Sequence record: NC_052656.1
Direction: 5' to 3' (one strand)
DNA from: Escherichia phage anhysbys
Length of the DNA: 64,000 bases
The position numbers and the translations under genes were made by a program. Shown piece after piece: positions 5,427-55,067 of this stretch. Within the stretch, counting starts at the first letter, position 1; each line of letters begins with the position of its first letter. The notes beneath the pieces were generated by a model, which made no database searches, had not been told where the DNA came from, and saw only the letters and a list, made by a program, of their open reading frames with translations.

Positions 5427-5629
5427 AAGCTTTTGCTGTATACTCTACTGTAGGATTCTTTTATTGGATTATAGTTATTGTCGGATGTTGGTTAGGTTCT
5501 TGTGTTGTGATGGGAGAATGGTTAACATACAACGTATTTGAATGGGATGTAGTTTGTAGATCATTACTTGTTATATGGACTGCTATTGTTTGTTGGACAA
5601 CTGTTAGTCTAACATTGGATCTATACTGA
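5420..5629 (+). CDS. hypothetical membrane protein
   Basis: 69-aa ORF, two hydrophobic segments. Confidence 0.4.
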   Translation: MLKAFAVYSTVGFFYWIIVIVGCWLGSCVVMGEWLTYNVFEWDVVCRSLLVIWTAIVCWTTVSLTLDLY

Positions 5630-5638
5630 TTAATAGAT

Positions 5639-5667
5639 GGTAGATAGATGATCATAGTTTATCTACC
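5639..5667. repeat. inverted repeat GGTAGATA / TATCTACC (8-bp arms, 13-nt spacer)
   Basis: Perfect 8-bp inverted repeat directly after the stop of the 5420..5629 ORF. Confidence 0.6.
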
Positions 5668-5797
5668 TTCACTTACGTTTCATACCTCACTATCGTGAGT
5701 AACATGAAACATTATTATATAGAAATCTACTACTCGCTATCGCTCGTAAACATATGTTTAGGGTACCATATTTTTTTGAAAAAGTCAATGCTGATTC

Positions 5798-5922: not shown

Positions 5923-5952
5923 TTGACAAACTCACAAAACTTGTGTTACATT
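5923..5952 (+). promoter_or_regulatory. sigma70-like promoter
   Basis: TTGACA at 5923-5928, 17/18-nt spacer, TTACAT/TACATT -10, about 40 nt before the ORF at 5990. Confidence 0.45.
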
Positions 5953-42694: not shown

Positions 42695-42885
42695 TTCTTT
42701 ACGTACTCCATGATTGGGGTATGGTCGCCAGTAAGCGTAACACGGCTGTAGGACACATCTTGTGTCTTCAGTGTATCAATCCACTCTAAGAAGTGTTCTT
42801 TCGCTTCTGTGTAGTTCTGTGTGCCTTTAACAACGTGTATACCATCTAGAGTTACACGGAATACCATTTGAATAACGTCTTTCAT
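42691..42885 (-). CDS. hypothetical protein
   Basis: 64-aa ORF. Confidence 0.4.
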   Translation of the reverse strand: MKDVIQMVFRVTLDGIHVVKGTQNYTEAKEHFLEWIDTLKTQDVSYSRVTLTGDHTPIMEYVKK

Positions 42886-42981
42886 TTCTTACCTCCTTTG
42901 TTGTCAAAATAACTTACCAGAACATCGTGAACCACACACATGGCAAAAATCAGAACAATTGTTGTCAGGACTGGATTCTCA

Positions 42982-43305
42982 CTAATTAGTGCTATCATCT
43001 TTAACCACCTCCAATTGCCTTTCGAGTTTGACTTTGTTTGAGAACTGATAATGACACAACTTACATTGCATGTCAACAATCTGATCGTGATTTAACCCTA
43101 CAATTTTAACTTCCTTTGCACCATCCCATTCCAAATACTCAAAGCCATCCAAATGATTACTCTTGTCCAACAAGAATGCTATCTGCTGCCATTCAATCTG
43201 AATGTCATTTAAATGATATGCTGCACAGAAGATATCCTCGTAGTAAAAGACGATCATTGTCATTGCTTCGTCCAGCACAACTACCTCTTGTCTTGTAAAT
43301 CTCAT
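42982..43305 (-). CDS. hypothetical protein (first gene of the minus-strand block)
   Basis: 107-aa ORF with taggaggcta RBS. Confidence 0.45.
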   Translation of the reverse strand: MRFTRQEVVVLDEAMTMIVFYYEDIFCAAYHLNDIQIEWQQIAFLLDKSNHLDGFEYLEWDGAKEVKIVGLNHDQIVDMQCKLCHYQFSNKVKLERQLEVVKDDSTN

Positions 43306-43536
43306 TCTAGCCTCCTAAACGCGTCTCTGACGCACTTTTTATATATAAGATGATAAATCACCTTACCTAGTAAGTAAACTTGCTCTACGAGCCTCTTATG
43401 AAGCTTGTGTTATAGGCTATACTATTGCTACCTGTTTAAGCAAGGTTTTTGCGCACAGAAAATAATTTTTAATAAAACTCTTGACTTTTGTGTTCGAAGT
43501 ATGCTACCCTAGAAATCTATTAACGAGCGCAGCGAG

Positions 43537-43562
43537 TTAAGGTTTTAAGGTTTTAAGGTTGT
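43537..43562. repeat. tandem repeat, about 3 copies of AAGGTTTT
   Basis: ttaaggttttaaggttttaaggtt read directly. Confidence 0.8.
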
Positions 43563-43569
43563 TGATGTA

Positions 43570-43601
43570 GTACTCTGTACTCAAGTACTGTACTCCGTAC
43601 T
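43570..43601. repeat. cluster of five GTACT pentamers
   Basis: GTACT at 43570, 43577, 43585, 43590 and 43597. Confidence 0.7.
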
Positions 43602-43604
43602 AGA

Positions 43605-43618
43605 TTAATAATTATTAA
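43605..43618. repeat. perfect 14-bp palindrome TTAATAATTATTAA
   Basis: Read directly; sits in an AT-only tract. Confidence 0.7.
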
Positions 43619-43735
43619 ATATTAATAATAAATAATTATTAGATCTAACAAACAGGTATAGTGTATCAGAACTGGTACGTACAGATCAACTTCTATCAAT
43701 TAAAAATAAAATAATAAATTATTATAAATAATACT

Positions 43736-43749
43736 TGATCTATAGATCA
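43736..43749. repeat. perfect 14-bp palindrome TGATCTATAGATCA
   Basis: Read directly, about 45 bp upstream of the first plus-strand late-block ORF. Confidence 0.7.
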
Positions 43750-43795
43750 GTATGAAGTACAGTACGGAACATCTTAACAAGAATGGAGGTGTGCA

Positions 43796-43981
43796 ATGAT
43801 TAGTGAGAATCCGTGCAAATGGCATCATGTGCCTATTAAAGATTGTATGTCTTGTAATCCACGTTCTATTTATAACATTGCATCTTATGATGACGACAAT
43901 GTGTTAGACGATGATGAAGGCTGGGAGGATTTAGATTGGACTGGTTATGAAACCAAAAAGGATAAAATTATTCCTAGTTGA
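43796..43981 (+). CDS. hypothetical Cys-rich small protein
   Basis: 61-aa ORF with ggagg RBS. Confidence 0.45.
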   Translation: MISENPCKWHHVPIKDCMSCNPRSIYNIASYDDDNVLDDDEGWEDLDWTGYETKKDKIIPS

Positions 43982-44018
43982 CTTAAGATATCCTTCGTGC
44001 TAAACTAGAAGTGAGGAG

Positions 44019-44270
44019 ATGCCGATCACTCCCCATTTGGGGTTCGAAGGATATATGCAAAATAGCTTTTATTTTAGGTGCCGTGCTTGTAATAGGCATT
44101 TGACAAACCACTCCAGACGTGATAAAAATGGAGTCATCAAGGAATCAGACCTCTGTTCTATTTGCACAGGTTTGGCTTTTGATGATAGTCCCGAAAGGGT
44201 TTATCAGCATCAATGTATAACAGACGTTCTCGTGTCAAACTTGGTAGAGGACGAACAACTAACAGATTAG
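44019..44270 (+). CDS. hypothetical Cys-rich protein
   Basis: 83 aa; CRACNRH ... CSICTG. Confidence 0.45.
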   Translation: MPITPHLGFEGYMQNSFYFRCRACNRHLTNHSRRDKNGVIKESDLCSICTGLAFDDSPERVYQHQCITDVLVSNLVEDEQLTD

Positions 44271-44278
44271 GAGGAACA

Positions 44279-44527
44279 ATGTCTCTATTAGAAAAACACG
44301 TGTTTGAAGATGGTAACGGCAACGCAGTTTTTCTTTTCCATCCAGAAAAATACACATCTGAAAACAATGGTACAACTTCTATTGTAATCACTAAAGATGT
44401 TAAAGTTATTGATTTCTTGGCTCTGATGCGAGAGATGGATCTTGAAATTAATACTTTTAACGCAGAAGCTTTGGTTGTTGCTCTTCTGGAAAAGAAAGAT
44501 AGTGAAGAAGTAGCAGAATATGCTTAA
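44279..44527 (+). CDS. hypothetical protein
   Basis: Start moved to ATG 44279 after aggagg. Confidence 0.45.
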   Translation: MSLLEKHVFEDGNGNAVFLFHPEKYTSENNGTTSIVITKDVKVIDFLALMREMDLEINTFNAEALVVALLEKKDSEEVAEYA

Positions 44528-44534
44528 ATAACTA

Positions 44535-44564
44535 TTGACAAACGTATCCTTCATATGTTAGGAT
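44535..44564 (+). promoter_or_regulatory. sigma70-like promoter (CTATTGACAA family)
   Basis: TTGACA at 44535-44540, about 18-nt spacer, TAGGAT. Confidence 0.4.
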
Positions 44565-44773
44565 ACGTTCATCAAGTGTGGTAACAGGGTCGTTGACTTT
44601 TGTTAAGAGGGGCTTGCACTGCGGTAGTGTTAGAGACTACTTCTTCAGAGGTTAGCTACCAAAGAGGAAAAGGAATAGTCTCGGCTCAAGAACTTTTACG
44701 CTGAAAGTTGGGCTTGGTCTTAGAGAATGTAGCGGTTCTCTACAATCGTCAGCGTCTCTGTTACCACATTTAT

Positions 44774-44848
44774 GGCCCTGTAGCTCAATGGGAGAGCTGT
44801 CGGCTCATAACCGATAGGTAGCTGGATCGAAACCAGCCAGGGCCACCA
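44774..44848 (+). tRNA. tRNA-Met (anticodon CAT)
   Basis: Manual cloverleaf: acceptor GGCCCTG/CAGGGCC, loop CTCATAA, T-arm GCTGG-ATCGAAA-CCAGC, encoded CCA. Confidence 0.8.
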
Positions 44849-44850
44849 AC

Positions 44851-44925
44851 GTCTTTATGGTGTAATGGATAGCACAGGAGTCTTCTAAACTCTTAGTCAA
44901 GGTTCGATTCCTTGTAAAGACACCA
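44851..44925 (+). tRNA. tRNA-Arg (anticodon TCT)
   Basis: Acceptor GTCTTTA/TAAAGAC, loop CTTCTAA, T-loop TTCGATT, encoded CCA. Confidence 0.8.
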
Positions 44926-45120
44926 GAACATTTTAACATGAATTAGCTCAAGTGATTTGAACCCACTACTGATCATGGTGGCAGAGAATGAGGCAAGTAT
45001 GTCAGACATTATAAACAAAGGCCACGGTTATATTAGAAGACATAAATGCTCGAAGAGCACCGTTCGTTGAGAACGGGGGTTGGTGGAGTCACCATTCATG
45101 GTAAAATGTTTTAAAAACTA

Positions 45121-45150
45121 TTGACAACTAACATTATTTTATGTTAGATT
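45121..45150 (+). promoter_or_regulatory. sigma70-like promoter (CTATTGACAA family)
   Basis: TTGACA at 45121-45126, 18-nt spacer, TAGATT. Confidence 0.4.
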
Positions 45151-45158
45151 ATAAGTAT

Positions 45159-45249
45159 GGAAGGGCAAATCGACGTGGCGACGAAAACGGTCTTGAAAAC
45201 CGCCGAGCTTGAAAGAGCCTTGGGAGTTCGACTCTCCCTCCTTCCGCCA
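45159..45249 (+). tRNA. tRNA-Ser (anticodon TGA), class II
   Basis: Acceptor GGAAGGG/TCCTTCC, loop CTTGAAA, long variable arm, T-arm GGGAG-TTCGACT-CTCCC, encoded CCA. Confidence 0.75.
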
Positions 45250-45254
45250 GATTA

Positions 45255-45340
45255 GGTAGATTGGTGAAATGGTAGCCACAACAGTTTGCTAAACTGTAGT
45301 CGGAAACGGCGTGTAGGTTCGAGTCCTACATCTACCGCCA
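45255..45340 (+). tRNA. tRNA-Ser (anticodon GCT), class II
   Basis: Acceptor GGTAGAT/ATCTACC, stem ACAGT/ACTGT with loop TTGCTAA, long variable arm, encoded CCA. Confidence 0.8.
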
Positions 45341-45470
45341 AGTTCTTTTTAATATAGCTTACTTTAATAGAGTAAACTTTCGGCAGATGGCCTCCACCAT
45401 CTTACCGATAACTCATAGTTAGTGGTGTGAACACTGGCTATTTTAAAAAGAATTTAAATATTAGTATTTA

Positions 45471-45558
45471 GGTGAGTTAATTCCGTAGGGGTAGCGGGGC
45501 AGACTGTAAATCTGTTATCATTGCGATTCGGGTGGTTCGACTCCATCACTCACCACCA
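45471..45558 (+). tRNA. tRNA-Tyr (anticodon GTA), class II
   Basis: Acceptor GGTGAGT/ACTCACC, loop CTGTAAA, long variable arm, T-arm GGTGG-TTCGACT-CCATC, encoded CCA. Confidence 0.75.
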
Positions 45559-45564
45559 AATTAA

Positions 45565-45650
45565 GATGAGTTGGCTGAATGGTTTAAGCGGCGGACTGTT
45601 AATCCGTGTTCGAAAGAACGATATAGGTTCAAATCCTATACTCATCGCCA
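45565..45650 (+). tRNA. class II tRNA with anticodon GTT (Asn-decoding by anticodon, isotype uncertain)
   Basis: Acceptor GATGAGT/ACTCATC, stem GCGGA/TCCGT with loop CTGTTAA, variable-arm hairpin GTTC-GAAA-GAAC, T-arm ATAGG-TTCAAAT-CCTAT, encoded CCA. Confidence 0.6.
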
Positions 45651-45657
45651 GAATTAT

Positions 45658-45734
45658 GGACTTGTAGAGTTAAGGTAAACCCCCAGTCGCCAAGAGGCTT
45701 CTGGAATTGCAGGTATCGAATCCTGCCGAGTCCC
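45658..45734 (+). tRNA. tRNA-like element with non-canonical anticodon arm (possible pseudo-tRNA)
   Basis: 7-bp acceptor GGACTTG/CGAGTCC and T-stem GCAGG/CCTGC with 8-nt loop TATCGAAT, but no standard 5-bp/7-nt anticodon stem-loop; no CCA. Confidence 0.3.
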
Positions 45735-45740
45735 AGCTTT

Positions 45741-45815
45741 GCTCCTATAGTATAATGGCTATTACAACGGTTTTGTAATCCGTGGATCTCTGTTCGATTC
45801 AGAGTGGGAGCACCA
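45741..45815 (+). tRNA. tRNA-Thr (anticodon TGT)
   Basis: Acceptor GCTCCTA/TGGGAGC, loop TTTGTAA, T-arm CTCTG-TTCGATT-CAGAG, encoded CCA. Confidence 0.75.
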
Positions 45816-46088
45816 ACACAACATTAAGGGCACTGTGATTGATCGTCGTATCCTGTGCACAAGGTCTGTTCGAAAGACAGTGTTCTTAGTATTGTGTTGA
45901 TCACACAAAGAGTCACCTGAAACTTGACCGGAGTAGGGTTGGATGGGGCAAAAGAAGAAGCGGCTCTCCCATCGACAGCAACGAAGAATAATATTTGACT
46001 TTGGTTTTGTATTATTTTAAGTTAGCTTACCGAACGTAGGGCTAGTCACCCAATGGGATACTCGTCACTGTCCCACTCAATAAAACTA

Positions 46089-46118
46089 TTGACAACCAAT
46101 AGTAAAATGTAGTATAGT
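46089..46118 (+). promoter_or_regulatory. sigma70-like promoter (CTATTGACAA family)
   Basis: TTGACA at 46089-46094, 18-nt spacer, TATAGT. Confidence 0.45.
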
Positions 46119-46129
46119 AAAGATGTAGG

Positions 46130-46203
46130 GCGTTCTTGGTGTAGCGGTAGCATTCCGTCCTTCCAAGTCGGCGGCACGAGTTCGATCCTCGTAGAACGCT
46201 CCA
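46130..46203 (+). tRNA. tRNA-Gly (anticodon TCC)
   Basis: Acceptor GCGTTCT/AGAACGC, loop CTTCCAA, T-arm ACGAG-TTCGATC-CTCGT, encoded CCA. Confidence 0.75.
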
Positions 46204-46301
46204 AATTATTTAATAAAGGGTTGCCAGAAAACTTTCTCTTTTACTCATGGTTTTCTCCTTCTCTCACACCTCTTCTGGTTGCCCTTCATTAAATGATTTA
46301 T

Positions 46302-46376
46302 TGGTTTGTAGTGTAGTCCGGTAGCACACGACACTTTGACTGTCGTAGGTTTGGTTCAAATCCAGACAGACCAGCC
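46302..46376 (+). tRNA. tRNA-Gln (anticodon TTG)
   Basis: U1-A72 acceptor TGGTTTG/CAGACCA with discriminator G, stem CGACA/TGTCG with loop CTTTGAC, encoded CCA. Confidence 0.8.
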
Positions 46377-46382
46377 ATATAA

Positions 46383-46459
46383 CGGAATTTAGCTCAGTTT
46401 GGTAGAGCATACGCTTTGGGAGCGTAGGGTCGCAGGTTCGAATCCTGCAATTCCGACCA
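46383..46459 (+). tRNA. tRNA-Pro (anticodon TGG)
   Basis: C1-G72 acceptor CGGAATT/AATTCCG, stem TACGC/GCGTA with loop TTTGGGA, T-loop TTCGAAT, encoded CCA. Confidence 0.8.
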
Positions 46460-46465
46460 ATCAAA

Positions 46466-46539
46466 TGTTTCGTAGTTCAATGGTAGAACCCACGACTGAT
46501 AATCGTGAGACACAAGTTCGATTCTTGTCGAAACAACCA
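46466..46539 (+). tRNA. tRNA-Ile (anticodon GAT)
   Basis: Acceptor TGTTTCG/CGAAACA, stem CACGA/TCGTG with loop CTGATAA, T-arm ACAAG-TTCGATT-CTTGT, encoded CCA. Confidence 0.75.
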
Positions 46540-46541
46540 GT

Positions 46542-46611
46542 TTCCCGTTAGACTTACAGGATAAGAGTTCCACAACTTATTGTGATGCTGGTTCGAATCC
46601 AGCACGGGATA
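46542..46611 (+). tRNA. tRNA-like element with non-canonical anticodon arm (possible pseudo-tRNA)
   Basis: Acceptor TTCCCGT/ACGGGAT (1-72 mismatch) and canonical T-arm GCTGG-TTCGAAT-CCAGC, but middle folds only as CACAA-CTTA-TTGTG; no CCA. Confidence 0.3.
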
Positions 46612-46617
46612 CATAAT

Positions 46618-46696
46618 AGCGGGATAGAGGAGTCTGGTCGTCCTCGCCAGTTTCATATGCTGGAGATCATCGGTTCAAATCCGATTCCCGCCTCCA
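46618..46696 (+). tRNA. tRNA-Met (anticodon CAT), second copy, initiator/Ile2 not excluded
   Basis: Acceptor AGCGGGA/TCCCGCC with A1.C72 mismatch, stem CCAGT/GCTGG with loop TTCATAT, T-arm ATCGG-TTCAAAT-CCGAT, encoded CCA. Confidence 0.65.
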
Positions 46697-46811
46697 AATA
46701 TCGCTTGCCAGCGGTATCTTTGAAGACCTTGCCTGGTTCCTTCTAAGATGGAGGGGTGCGACTCCTTAACGCACAATTATAATAAAGCATTTCAAATTAA
46801 CAGTATTTATT

Positions 46812-46835
46812 AGCCTCCTTATTGGAGGCTTTTTG
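46812..46835 (+). terminator. intrinsic terminator closing the tRNA cluster
   Basis: AGCCTCC-ttatt-GGAGGCT followed by TTTTT. Confidence 0.7.
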
Positions 46836-46853
46836 CTATCTATTGAATAAAAC

Positions 46854-46882
46854 TTGACTTATTATTTTTTATATGTTAAGAT
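46854..46882 (+). promoter_or_regulatory. sigma70-like promoter
   Basis: TTGACT at 46854-46859, 17-nt spacer, TAAGAT. Confidence 0.35.
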
Positions 46883-48192: not shown

Positions 48193-50268
48193 GTGGCAAA
48201 GAAAAAGGCAGCAGGTAGTTTAGCTGGAGTAGATATTGAAGTAAAGGCTCAACCAGGTAAACAGACTCTTGCAATGGATTTAATGCCAGAAGTTATGATT
48301 TATGGTGGTGCCGCTGGATGTGTTTCTGCTGAAACGGAATATCTTACAAAAGATGGTTGGAGGCAGATTAGTGAATATTCGGGAGAGGATATTTACCAAT
48401 ATAATCCTAAGAATAAGCGTTTAGAATTGGTAACACCTTATTTTGTAGAATACGATTTAAATGGAGATAACCTATACAGAATAACAAATGGTGTAGGATT
48501 ATTCCAAGAACTTAGTATGGAACACCGTTTTGTATTCTATAAGAAAAAGAAATCAAAGAAACATTTCGAGATTCTTGTAGGAGATCTTATTGCATTACAG
48601 CAAATAGGAAAACCCCTGCAAGGTTATGTAGAAAATCCATTCGGTAAACGTGTTCCTTTTAACATACCTGGTAAAAAGAGCACTTACTTAAAAATACACG
48701 AGGTTATTTCAACAGATGATAAGAAATATTGTTTTGAGACTCCAAGCAGCTATATTGTCTTTAGACGTGGCGATCACTGCTTCGTTACTGGGAATAGCGG
48801 CAAGTCTCGTCTGCTATTGCTGAAAGCTTTAAAATACGCCTACAAAGACCCTTTGTTTGGTGGAATACTTTTCCGTAAGAACACCACTGCTCACCGTAAA
48901 CCAGGTGGTCTGTTTACAGAAGCAAAACGTTTGTATCTTCCTTTACAACCACACGTAAAAGAAAGTACAATGGATATCATTTTTGAAGCCACTGGTGGTG
49001 GAACCCTCAAATTTGACCATTTGGAAAATGATAACGTAACAGCAGAAACAAACCATCAGGGTACCCAGTATTCAATGGTAGGTTTTGACGAGTTAACCCA
49101 CTTCACACAATATGAAATGCTATATCTTCTGGGACGTATGCGTTCAGAGTCAGAAACAAGTTTCATGTTGTGCACATGTAACCCTGACGCAGATAGTTGG
49201 GTTTTGAATTGGGTGTTACCTTATCTTGATGAGGGTGGTTATCCTAGAGAAGATATGTGTGGTAAACAAAAATATTTCATCATTGTTAACGATGAACCTG
49301 TTTTTGCTGACACACCTGAAGAACTGAAAGAAAAATATCCAGAAAACTGTTTCATGGAAAACCCTAATACAGGGGAGACAGTTGTTATTGAACCACAAAC
49401 TTTCGTATTTATTGGTGGGACAATATTTGATAACCCAGAACTCATTAGGCTTAACCCTAATTACTTAGCACAGCTTAAATCACAAACAGCGATCAAAAGA
49501 GCACAGCTTCTGGACGGTTGTTGGTTTGCACGTATCCAGAAAGAATCTTTCTTTCAACGTGAATGGTTACATAAAATATCTTATAAAGATGTTCCTAACA
49601 ATCTTAAACTAATGCGAGCATGGGATAAAGCTGTTTCAGTTCCTACAGAAACTTACCGTTATCCAGACTATACAACATCTGTCAAAATGGGTAAAGATCA
49701 AGATGGTAATATCTACATCTTTGGCGACTATGATTATGATGCTGTGGATGAGAAAAGTAAAATTTTCGGAAGGTTTCGAAGACTACCTGGGGAAAGGGAT
49801 AACCTGATTCTAAATCAATGTAAGATTGATGGACCAGAAGTTACAGTAGTGCTTCCTAAAGACCCATCTGGTGCTGGGACAATAGAATACACAGAGTCTG
49901 CAAAGAAACTTATTCTAGAAGGTTTTGTTGTTAAACCAGATGCTATGCCAGGTAACAAGAAAAAGCTTCAGCGTTTTATGCCTTTTAGTAGTGCGTGTCA
50001 AAACGGTTTTGTTTATATTGTTGAAGATTCTTTCCCTAATGTGGAAACTTTAACCCACTTTTATAAAGAATTGGAATCTTTCAATGGTGAAAGATCTACA
50101 GCCACTATTAAAGATGACATTCCCGATGCTGCTGCCTCTTGTTTTAATACTCTGTCAAAAGAGAATACTTTCAAAGCAGTAGCTATCCCTACAACAACAA
50201 ATGCTCCTACAGGATACAGTAGAATGAACAGCGGATTTCACCAGCCGTATAGTGTCCGTAAAAGATAA
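48193..50268 (+). CDS. terminase large subunit (intein-containing)
   Basis: Walker A GAAG|SGKS split by the insertion, Walker B MVGFDELTH, C-terminal nuclease-size domain; GTG start after AAGGAGGG. Confidence 0.8.
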   Translation: MAKKKAAGSLAGVDIEVKAQPGKQTLAMDLMPEVMIYGGAAGCVSAETEYLTKDGWRQISEYSGEDIYQYNPKNKRLELVTPYFVEYDLNGDNLYRITNGVGLFQELSMEHRFVFYKKKKSKKHFEILVGDLIALQQIGKPLQGYVENPFGKRVPFNIPGKKSTYLKIHEVISTDDKKYCFETPSSYIVFRRGDHCFVTGNSGKSRLLLLKALKYAYKDPLFGGILFRKNTTAHRKPGGLFTEAKRLYLPLQPHVKESTMDIIFEATGGGTLKFDHLENDNVTAETNHQGTQYSMVGFDELTHFTQYEMLYLLGRMRSESETSFMLCTCNPDADSWVLNWVLPYLDEGGYPREDMCGKQKYFIIVNDEPVFADTPEELKEKYPENCFMENPNTGETVVIEPQTFVFIGGTIFDNPELIRLNPNYLAQLKSQTAIKRAQLLDGCWFARIQKESFFQREWLHKISYKDVPNNLKLMRAWDKAVSVPTETYRYPDYTTSVKMGKDQDGNIYIFGDYDYDAVDEKSKIFGRFRRLPGERDNLILNQCKIDGPEVTVVLPKDPSGAGTIEYTESAKKLILEGFVVKPDAMPGNKKKLQRFMPFSSACQNGFVYIVEDSFPNVETLTHFYKELESFNGERSTATIKDDIPDAAASCFNTLSKENTFKAVAIPTTTNAPTGYSRMNSGFHQPYSVRKR
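48319..48795 (+). mobile_element. putative mini-intein (159 aa) in the terminase P-loop
   Basis: Insertion begins with Cys and ends ...FVTGN immediately before Ser; excising it restores GAAGSGKS; too short to carry a homing endonuclease domain. Confidence 0.6.
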
Positions 50269-51935: not shown

Positions 51936-51963
51936 AAATATTTAATATTTTTTAATTTTTCTA

Positions 51964-51992
51964 TTGACAAAACAACAAATATCCTGTAGACT
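51964..51992 (+). promoter_or_regulatory. sigma70-like promoter (CTATTGACAA family)
   Basis: TTGACA 51964-51969, 17-nt spacer, TAGACT. Confidence 0.4.
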
Positions 51993-54065: not shown

Positions 54066-55067
54066 ATGCCAGCAGTAATTTTAGATCAGGTTGTAGATTT
54101 CAGCCCTATGATCGAACTTCAGGATTCCCCTGATACACTGATTGCCAGCCTGAATCTGTTCAGTGTTGACTATCATTCAACTACCGCTATTGAAATCGGT
54201 AAAGAAAAAGCTGAAGATGCTCTGATCTCCGCTCGTGAGCGTGGTGGTGAGCGTAACTTCCTGAGCATGAAAAATCCAGAACTGAAAGCGTTCCGCATTC
54301 CGTTCTTCCCTCTGGATAAAAACATCAAAGCTCAAGATATTCAATCTTTCCGTAGCTTTGCAATGGCAGGAATCAATGACTCTCTGCGCACAGACGCTGA
54401 AGTTGTTAACCGCTATATGTCCCAGATTCTGCGTGACGTAGCAAAAACCAAAGAGAAAATCTTTGCAGAAGCAGTTATGGGTCGTGCCTATAACGGCGTA
54501 GGTGGTGCAGCTAACTCTGCATACAACTGGTATACAGAATGGGGTGCTACCCAGAAATCTGTTGCTGTAGACTTTGCTTCTACCACTGTTTCTCCAGCAG
54601 CCACTATCGAGAAAGAAGCTCGTGCTTACATCATCGATACTAAACAAGATGGCTCTACCGCTACTCGTATCGTAGCTCTGTGTTCTCGTGAATTTTTCGC
54701 ATCTCTGGTTAACTCTCCATTTGTTCGCCAGGCATATCAGTATTTCCAGGGAACTCCTAACCTTCTGCGTGATCGCCTTAGCGGTAACATGGATGTTCAG
54801 GTGTTCGAATGGAACGGTGTAACTTACATTGAAGATATCCACGGTAACATCCCTGCTGGTGAAGCATATGTTCTGCCTATGGGTATCGAAGGTATGTTCC
54901 AGGCGCACTACGCTCCTGCGGATACTCCAGAACTGGCTAACACCCAGGCTCGTGAACTGTATACCTTCATGATCAGCCAGCACCGCACTATTCAGCTTCA
55001 GTCTGAATTCTCGCTGCTCGCAGTTAACACCCGTCCAGAACTGGTAGTTAAACTGACTACGGCTTAA
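54066..55067 (+). CDS. major capsid protein (lambda gpE-like)
   Basis: 333 aa; ELANTQARELYTF resembles the lambda gpE NTQARGL segment; strong RBS and terminator right after the gene. Confidence 0.6.
   Translation: MPAVILDQVVDFSPMIELQDSPDTLIASLNLFSVDYHSTTAIEIGKEKAEDALISARERGGERNFLSMKNPELKAFRIPFFPLDKNIKAQDIQSFRSFAMAGINDSLRTDAEVVNRYMSQILRDVAKTKEKIFAEAVMGRAYNGVGGAANSAYNWYTEWGATQKSVAVDFASTTVSPAATIEKEARAYIIDTKQDGSTATRIVALCSREFFASLVNSPFVRQAYQYFQGTPNLLRDRLSGNMDVQVFEWNGVTYIEDIHGNIPAGEAYVLPMGIEGMFQAHYAPADTPELANTQARELYTFMISQHRTIQLQSEFSLLAVNTRPELVVKLTTA

Follow-up and report, generated by a model that had tools for sequence, protein, structure and literature searches.

The early promoters of T4-type phages carry an extended −10 element together with A/T-rich upstream elements. 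In phage rV5, which has the same four-unit layout as the phages considered here, bidirectional σ70 promoters have been predicted at the divergent junction between genes 10 and 11 (PMC3606486). We report here on a junction of this kind in Escherichia phage anhysbys (sequence record NC_052656.1), of which a stretch of 64,000 nucleotides, referred to below as the window, was analysed. The junction lies in a 490 bp gap (43306–43795) that separates a minus-strand gene for a 107-residue protein (ATG at 43305) from a plus-strand gene for a 61-residue protein (ATG at 43796). As in the rV5 and T4-type early promoter regions, sites of the σ70 type stand back to back at the junction of opposed units, with TTGAC-type −35 hexamers, TGn extended −10 elements, A/T-rich blocks resembling UP elements and a skew that flips with transcription. 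The locus differs from those regions in having two predicted rightward promoters in tandem, about 250 bp apart, in the atypical conserved −10 hexamer (TACCCT) that is coupled to a leader hairpin, and in a clade-specific inverted duplication with a cluster of GTAC sites.

In our view, the region probably controls divergent early transcription in a myovirus of the phAPEC8-like group, and we infer its promoter activity from the resemblance of three sites to the σ70 consensus and from their conservation. Host σ70 RNA polymerase would start leftward at the predicted promoter P_L, into a block of about 34 kb devoted to nucleotide metabolism, ligase and exonucleases, and rightward at the tandem sites P_R1 and P_R2, into small early genes and the tRNA cluster. 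Transcripts from P_R1 would begin with a conserved stem–loop (43520–43540) belonging to a cassette that appears to be used three times per genome, and the second of two A/T-only runs would serve as the UP element of P_R2. A slippage-prone TTAAGGTT array, the extra GTACT units and an inverted partial duplication of P_R2 would be recent, lineage-specific additions, and the first A/T-only run and one of the GTAC-rich arms would have arisen through the duplication. Phages of the phAPEC8-like and phi92-like groups are widely isolated as candidates for therapy and biocontrol; of the two divergent junctions in the genome, the analysis maps one, with three predicted promoters, two leader hairpins and a recurring promoter–leader cassette.

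Conserved promoter-like sites at the divergent junction

The predicted promoters and the leader element that follows one of them are as follows (window coordinates).

43350–43378, minus strand: predicted promoter P_L; −35 TTTACT (43378–43373), 17 nt spacer, −10 TATCAT (43355–43350); scan score 9/12
43481–43510, plus strand: predicted promoter P_R1; −35 TTGACT (43481–43486), 18 nt spacer, extended −10 TG (43502–43503), −10 TACCCT (43505–43510); A/T-rich stretch upstream
43520–43540, plus strand: leader hairpin; stem TTAAC/GTTAA round the invariant core GAGCGCAGCGA, 1–5 nt from the expected transcription start
43698–43763, plus strand: predicted promoter P_R2; A/T-only UP-like run (43698–43733), −35 TTGATC (43735–43740), 17 nt spacer, −10 TACAGT (43758–43763)

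Between 63 and 70 phage records match the 490 bp region, nearly all of them from Phapecoctavirus (phAPEC8/ESCO13-like myoviruses of the subfamily Stephanstirmvirinae), with identities of 93–99% over the region (nearest Ro121lw, at 98.6%), and on this sequence comparison the window is that of a Phapecoctavirus. The flanking genes are oriented away from the region. Variation between close relatives was read from a MAFFT alignment of ten of them. Diverged relatives were found through the flanking 107-residue protein, which is only 33–58% identical in them, and the homologous gaps were read in phi92, phiWec190/181, FKP3 and Tr1. Genome-wide counts were made on the related 151 kb genome of Schickermooser (MK373788), assembled from six pieces, in which the region corresponds to 54,492–54,968.

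All three promoter-like sites combine σ70-type hexamers with a spacer of 16–18 nt, and their order, hexamers and 17–18 nt spacers are kept in phi92, phiWec190/181, FKP3 and Tr1. This retention across genera supports the regulator-binding or transcription hub that an earlier reading of the region, made from the sequence alone (the sequence-only reading), had proposed beside a replication origin and a packaging site; each of the motifs in that reading is also real and lies where it had been placed. P_L has counterparts at the same position and with the same 17 nt spacing in FKP3 (TTGACA-17-TATCAT) and Tr1 (TTGACT-17-TACCAT); its −10 match is weak in phi92. Its block AGGTAAGGTGAT is invariant across the ten close relatives and occurs once in the window. 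For P_R1 the form TTGAC(T/A)-N17/18-TGnTACCCT is kept in phi92, phiWec190, FKP3 and Tr1 as well as in IMG/VR contigs. P_R2 scores below the threshold of the promoter scan and is therefore called from conservation: an A/T block followed by TTGAC[T/C]-17/18 nt-TAnnnT is kept in the same four phages, and the counterparts of the hexamers read TTGACT-17-TAGAGT in phi92, TTGACC-17-TACACT in FKP3 and TTGACC-17-TAGTAT in Tr1. In the window the sequence ATAATACTTGATC of P_R2 is a degenerate version of the AAAACTnTTGAC motif of P_R1.

Two A/T-only runs are found in the region, of 38 bp at 43604–43641 and of 36 bp at 43698–43733. In phi92, phiWec190, FKP3 and Tr1 the first of these is not present, and a single A/T block sits exactly at the position of the P_R2 UP element. 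A/T-only runs of at least 28 bp number just three in Schickermooser, two of which are those of the region. The third (window 51941–51990, with a 10 bp tandem repeat) lies directly upstream of TTGACA-17-TAGACT in the structural-gene block, and this further association with a TTGACA site supports the reading of such runs as UP elements. The two perfect 14 bp palindromes to which attention had been drawn are both present. The first, TTAATAATTATTAA at 43605–43618 within the first A/T-only run, means little alone, as 24% of shuffles of the two runs contain a perfect palindrome of 14 nt. The second, TGATCTATAGATCA at 43736–43749, consists of the −35 hexamer and part of the spacer of P_R2. Its left arm, which holds TTGATC, is invariant and its right arm is changed in five of ten strains (GATTA, AAATCA, GATGA), so that the palindrome as such is not constrained.

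Sites of the form TTGAC-N16-18-TAnnnT occur 39 times in the window, compared with 11.5 ± 3.5 in first-order Markov resamples of it. Seven plus-strand promoter-like sites between 43481 and 46854 share the AAAACTnTTGAC motif: P_R1 itself and six further sites at 43978–46854, which read AAAACTnTTGAC(A/T)-N17/18-(TGn)TAnnnT and are interleaved with three small open reading frames (ORFs) and ten tRNA genes. From this arrangement it seems that a series of host-type promoters in tandem drives early transcription of the tRNA cluster.

Several observations weigh against the reading of the locus as an early-transcription control region. The −10 hexamer of P_R1 matches TATAAT poorly and yet is strictly conserved, which hints at an added constraint beyond simple promoter function. 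On neither strand can a promoter be recognised next to the first A/T-only run. Promoter function does not explain the GTAC cluster described below (9–10 copies of the most avoided site within 200 bp), and given the genome-wide selection against GTAC its persistence is hard to reconcile with neutral duplication. Furthermore, a literature search gave no mapped transcription starts or transcriptome for any member of the subfamily, and the three promoters are thus predictions from consensus and conservation.

The leader hairpin and its promoter cassette

The nutL and nutR boxB hairpins of phage λ and the put sites of HK022 are promoter-proximal RNA elements on early transcripts. Mini-hairpins of the d(GCGAAGC) type, with a GNA loop, were reportedly described by Hirao and colleagues, and their occurrence is reported from the phiX174/G4 origin regions and from some promoters. 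The leader predicted downstream of P_R1 contains an element with likenesses to both. Its core, CGAGCG-N-AGCGAG, lies 10–17 nt 3′ of the −10 hexamer and is flanked by complementary bases, an arrangement that is kept across genera. The core GAGCGCAGCGA can form a GC-GNA-GC mini-hairpin with tandem G·A pairs, and variation in it is confined to the loop, which reads GCA, GAA or GATA (N = C, A or AT). Covariation in the leader stem flanking the core is significant. Over 11 distinct copies the covariation score is 0.345, compared with 0.174 in shuffles (1 of 500), and 84% of cells are paired, compared with 75% in shuffles, none of 500 of which reaches this value. Slid controls for the stem gave 31–46% pairing. 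Single pairs change type between copies, for example C-G/A-U and U-A/C-G. RNAalifold was also run on the hairpin copies, and an Rfam scan of 42800–44800 at E values of up to 5 gave no meaningful family match.

The hairpin is probably a 5′-terminal RNA element that either stabilises the mRNA or, in the manner of nut/put sites, serves to load a factor. Like the boxB and put elements, it is a small stem–loop with a purine-rich loop, it lies within the first ~30 nt of predicted early transcripts and it is present in several copies (three here). It differs from nut in its loop, which is of the GNA/GNNA type and is closed by tandem G·A pairs, and its position at the very 5′ end fits a 5′-terminal stabiliser equally well. 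No boxA-like sequence was seen in the leader by eye, no search for one having been run, and no N-like protein was identified. The core GC-G(C/A)A-GC matches the d(GCGAAGC)-type motif; unlike that motif, it forms part of a more extended covarying stem within a predicted transcribed leader.

The module of promoter and hairpin occurs three times per genome, namely at P_R1, at window position 5788 on the minus strand and at 128,649 of Schickermooser, also on the minus strand, the hairpin lying in each case behind a TACCCT promoter. Justusliebigvirus and phiWec genomes have two copies each. The second Justusliebigvirus copy (L052, probably L043) runs nearly straight into a ribosome-binding site, with no A/T-only run between them. 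The recurrence of the module, together with these second copies that lack an A/T run, is more readily explained by a promoter-plus-leader cassette than by an element specific to an origin. The second copy in the window is as follows.

5727–5793, minus strand: TTGACT-N17-TGgTACCCT, then TAAACATATGTTTA, then CGAGCGATAGCGAG

This copy points antisense to the adjoining plus-strand early ORFs, with the perfect palindrome TAAACATATGTTTA at 5747. After it come a CTCAC-GATA-GTGAG hairpin and a putative minus-strand ORF of 64 residues (5461–5655). A promoter-like site on the plus strand at 5923 suggests that this neighbourhood is a second small divergent junction.

A pattern scan of IMG/VR for TACCCT...GAGCGNAGCGAG gave 114 loci, which by our estimate is approximately the number expected by chance; only about eight of them have a TTGAC −35 and are true relatives. 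A stricter pattern returned one phiWec-like contig. We note that in unrelated IMG/VR contigs (L014, L041, L066, L087, L094 and others) the core GAGCG(A/C)AGCGAG often lies within complementary runs, such as CCCC...GGGG or GTTTAGC...GCTAAAC, the locus count being near chance for the pattern. To judge from its sequence, this core may represent a stable mini-hairpin in wide use.

The leftward leader has a hairpin of its own.

43311–43333, minus strand: Shine–Dalgarno sequence GGAGG (43311–43315) and hairpin GCGTC-AGA-GACGC (43321–43333) in the 5′ untranslated region of the leftward 107-residue gene

The DNA fold of this hairpin is −4.9 kcal/mol (z −2.5). Its pairing is kept while the sequence of the stem changes, to GCTC...GAGC in phi92 and Tr1 and to GCGT...ACGC in phiWec190. 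An intrinsic terminator at 43321–43333 on the plus strand was considered and rejected: nothing upstream is transcribed rightward, the relatives have no T-run and the count equals the expectation from shuffles.

The GTAC cluster and the inverted repeat

Clusters of the 4 bp methylation site GATC are found at the control regions oriC of E. coli and oriR and pac of P1. In the region described here, which we likewise read as a control region, a 4 bp palindrome is concentrated well beyond its density in the genome as a whole. The site in this case is GTAC, which is depleted in the genome rather than neutral, the cluster is clade-specific and methylation of GTAC is only hypothetical. The elements concerned are as follows.

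43537–43560, plus strand: (TTAAGGTT)x3, a perfect tandem array of 24 nt
43570–43601, unstranded: five GTACT pentamers at 43570, 43577, 43585, 43590 and 43597, spaced by 7, 8, 5 and 7 nt
43584–43640, unstranded: left arm of a large imperfect inverted repeat, with the first A/T-only run (43604–43641)
43642–43653 and 43681–43690, unstranded: GATC blocks A (GATCTAACAAAC) and B (ACAGATCAAC), with GTACGTAC (43675–43682) between them

Nine GTAC sites are clustered within 196 bp (43570–43765), consisting of the five GTACT pentamers and sites at 43675, 43679, 43757 and 43762. The whole window has 54 GTAC sites, against 183–224 expected, so that nine of 54 fall in the cluster; a Poisson estimate corrected for all positions is ~1e-8. 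In Schickermooser the observed/expected ratio of GTAC is 0.32, the lowest of the sixteen 4 bp palindromes, and the densest GTAC cluster of its 151 kb is that of the region, with ten sites in 200 bp. CCGG (0.39), GGCC (0.40) and CTAG (0.54) are also depleted and GATC is at expectation (1.01). The joint depletion of these four palindromes fits restriction avoidance. Decay of methylated cytosine was considered as the cause of the GTAC depletion, but GTAT and ATAC are not in excess (1.03–1.06), which makes it unlikely and leaves avoidance of restriction as the better reading. A 45-mer covering the GTACT cluster is identical in 49 of 62 related records, a tenth GTAC is present at 43657 in most relatives, and no composite GTAC motif is found elsewhere in the window.

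The tandem array and the GTACT pentamers were accurately described by the sequence-only reading: the three TTAAGGTT units are present and perfect, and the five pentamers do fall within 32 bp. Absence from related phages, which that reading had named as telling against it, is nevertheless what we find for both outside the ESCO13/phAPEC8 clade, the TTAAGGTT triple and the five GTACT units being missing from phi92, phiWec190, FKP3 and Tr1. Within the clade, three perfect TTAAGGTT units occur in the window only; in most close relatives the shorter form TTAAGGTTTTAGGTTG takes their place, and a 7 nt variant is found in Ro121lw and UP17. Such differences in copy number between strains are a signature of slippage. 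The GATC blocks have a wider distribution, reading GATCTAACA[A/G]AC and ACAGATC across genera; GATCTAACAGAC is found in phi92 and Tr1, GATCTAAAAGAC in phiWec190 and AACAGATCTGCTC in phiWec190 and Tr1, in identical order.

Local alignment of 43584–43640 with the reverse complement of 43700–43766 gives a score of 40, compared with 23 ± 3.9 for shuffles, and none of 500 reaches the observed value. The left arm has a DNA fold z of −2.5, and when 43515–43800 is folded as RNA (z = −2.3) the two arms pair. An inner 17 bp inverted repeat, TAGAT(C)TAATAATTATT (43601–43616) -N14- AATAATTATTAGATCTA (43631–43647), is perfect in UP17. The alignment test of the two large arms is not significant in phi92 and FKP3 and is marginal in phiWec190 and Tr1, which indicates that the inverted duplication is clade-specific. 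To judge from the alignment, the left GTAC arm together with the first A/T-only run resembles an inverted duplicate of the P_R2 segment (−10, spacer, −35 and UP element) that has partly decayed. Two other candidates were discarded by eye: a leftward promoter in the left arm, which would have no −35 and the wrong spacing, and a LexA box in TACTGT/ACAGTA, the half-sites of which are wrongly spaced.

Two related records, BI-EHEC and KKP 3954, are without most of the GTAC sites of the cluster. BI-EHEC (OL505078.1, 25000–74999 compared with 13.5–63.5 kb of the window) is 98.9% identical over 48 kb, and by blastn 18 of 33 aligned GTAC sites are lost; two further sites scored as kept by blastn are changed in the MAFFT alignment. 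The changes are strand-biased (on the plus strand of the record, 14 are G>A and 3 are C>T), mostly GTAC>ATAC, and seven of the 12 that fall in coding sequence are nonsynonymous, compared with 18% of other substitutions. This pattern could arise if the bases of a modified motif were systematically miscalled, in which case the virion DNA would carry modified GTAC, or it could reflect very strong selection against GTAC. Changes between the GTAC arms in BI-EHEC and KKP 3954 that at first appear compensatory were rejected as such, the BI-EHEC loss being genome-wide and partly technical in appearance, and for this reason we take neither record as evidence either way on the cluster.

Switch, origin and packaging roles considered

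The conserved cluster of the genome's most avoided restriction-type site is the one feature of the region that ordinary promoter function leaves unexplained; should it prove functional, it would offer a way into the timing of early genes or the origin of the group. Its GTAC repeats (GTACT x5, GTACGTAC and GTACAGTAC) could be operators for a clade-specific protein or targets of GTAC modification, and a switch of this kind would shut off or time P_R2 and block read-through from P_R1, possibly by looping of the inverted arms. It would be an addition to the promoter hub and not a replacement for it, and we regard it as a possibility to be held only tentatively. The contrast between the depletion of GTAC in the genome and its densest cluster here speaks for it, as do the overlap of two GTAC sites with the −10 hexamer of P_R2 (GTACAGTAC), the significant inverted repeat formed by the arms, the identity of the 45-mer in most records with no similar composite motif elsewhere in the window, and the Dcm-domain protein and N6-adenine methyltransferase that the phage encodes. 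These points are offset by the flanking ORFs, which have no Pfam family and offer no candidate binding protein, and by close relatives that are too alike (95–99%) for conservation to prove constraint. In addition, BI-EHEC and KKP 3954 lack most of the sites, with the reservation on BI-EHEC given above, and duplication and slippage might have given rise to the cluster incidentally. A broader proposal, which we think unlikely, joins two claims: that the GTAC-rich inverted repeat with its A/T-only core is a functional clade-specific control element (a phAPEC8-like origin with GTAC initiator sites and A/T unwinding, or an early-promoter switch gated by methylation or a protein), kept against the selection that removed two thirds of GTAC sites, and that the TACCCT-promoter–CGAGCG-N-AGCGAG cassette, with three copies per genome and a presence in at least three clades of the subfamily, is an undescribed RNA element of the nut/put kind. 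The primary origin of T7 comprises promoters 1.1A/1.1B and an A/T-rich stretch, and oriF and oriG of T4 comprise a middle promoter and an unwinding element. At the present locus a promoter is likewise followed by an A/T-only stretch within ~100 bp, and the replisome is T7-like. By analogy, transcription from P_R1, P_R2 or both could open the adjacent 38 bp A/T-only inverted repeat as an unwinding element, the transcript or a phage primase–helicase could then prime bidirectional synthesis, and the GTAC repeats or GATC blocks could bind an initiator or tie firing to methylation state. The layout is compatible with such a transcription-activated origin, a role that we judge improbable. It has in its favour the conserved P_R1 (43481–43510) with a 100% A/T run (43604–43641) at +90 to +130, although this run is clade-specific and the only A/T block of the other genera is at the UP position of P_R2; the 38 bp and 36 bp runs as candidate unwinding elements, two of only three of their length in the related 151 kb genome; the significance of the large inverted repeat; and the conservation of the GATC blocks across genera in a phage with its own N6-adenine methyltransferase. 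The replisome genes (family A polymerase and a gp4/DnaB-type primase–helicase; see also PMC3606486), the position at a divergent junction with a local minimum of cumulative GC skew, and the fact that the rV5 paper leaves the origin of this phage group unplaced (PMC3606486) are also consistent with it.

A number of findings speak against such an origin. Cumulative GC skew in Schickermooser has extremes at all four strand switches (~17, 55, 95 and 130 kb), with its global minimum at 130 kb, and thus only tracks the direction of transcription, as the authors of the rV5 study also concluded for their phage (PMC3606486); we have accordingly set it aside as an indicator of an origin. Neither the first A/T run nor the GTACT cluster has a counterpart in phiWec190, phi92, FKP3 or Tr1, and the promoter–hairpin module is also found where no A/T run follows. 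The repeat units are 5–8 bp long, are spaced by 5–8 bp, are not in helical phase and are unconserved, and the region has no set of three or more direct repeats of ~17–22 bp in helical phase as in iteron-type origins. DnaA and IHF sites are not in excess in the region (one DnaA box and one IHF site, each with one mismatch, which is the chance level), and no initiator gene adjoins it, the flanking ORFs matching no known family. A more iteron-like array is present at ~137 kb of Schickermooser and is, judged by its sequence, a better candidate of that type than the present region. The sequence-only reading had included a packaging site among its suggestions, and a pac or cos site for terminase would suit a repeat-dense region that has the large terminase gene 4.4 kb downstream of it and within which the nieznany record both begins and ends. 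The two nieznany ends, however, together account for ~650 bp of a region of ~480 bp (by coordinate arithmetic, with no alignment of the ends) and so seem to overlap, in the manner of a contig assembled as a circle. The suggestion is contradicted by Schickermooser (MK373788), which has an identical 329 bp direct repeat at its termini (1–329 and 150,866–151,194) that has no homologue in the window; the region is 54.5 kb from the left end, and separate repeats adjoin the right terminal repeat. A terminal repeat of 328 bp was given for Schickermooser by Korf et al. (PMC6563267), one of 342 bp was found by PhageTerm in the related BME3 (PMC12210895), and the subfamily in general is said to carry direct terminal repeats (PMC12695924). 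Many related records share a start point ~54–57 kb upstream of the region, which together with the terminal repeats puts ~11 kb between the left end and the beginning of the window and keeps the region clear of both termini. We therefore attach almost no probability to a packaging role, and the divergent early-transcription control region remains our preferred interpretation.

The ~137 kb array lies in a 575 bp non-coding gap (136,665–137,240) and consists of four 19 bp palindromic units (AAATGAGAAnnnTTCTCAT) at an exact spacing of 29 bp; direct repeats of 34 and 72 nt are found in the same gap. Sequences resembling it are found in 242 phage records; in those of T5-like phages, which are among them, the annotated left terminal repeat encloses the matching sequence. 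A long non-coding stretch to the left of the right terminal repeat copy of Schickermooser (149,974–151,194) has several families of dispersed repeats (such as TAACGATAA x3 and a 15 bp unit x2.6), and from their position these repeats are possible terminase-recognition or end-processing signals. The description of the 490 bp gap as the largest intergenic region holds for the window, the larger non-coding stretches of the related complete genome all being outside it.

On its right-hand side the gap ends with the start of the 61-residue gene.

43785–43798, plus strand: Shine–Dalgarno sequence GGAGG (43785–43789) and ATG (43796) of the 61-residue gene (phrog_26411, function unassigned)

Rightward of this gene there are three small ORFs, the ten tRNA genes (44774–46696) and the large terminase gene at 48193. 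The ~34 kb minus-strand block on the left contains genes for ribonucleotide reductase, ThyX, ligase, exonucleases and polynucleotide kinase/RNA ligase. Searches of ten flanking ORFs against Pfam and PHROGs assigned no known function except for a spanin 3.8 kb away. Small ORFs that are annotated within the gap in some records (ETEC-TG, WPEC) are A/T-rich and unconserved and were rejected as spurious. In phiWec190/181 an extra leftward gene for a 70-residue protein (2216–2428), which has no counterpart in the window, is located between P_L and P_R1, suggesting that this part of the gap is tolerant of insertions.

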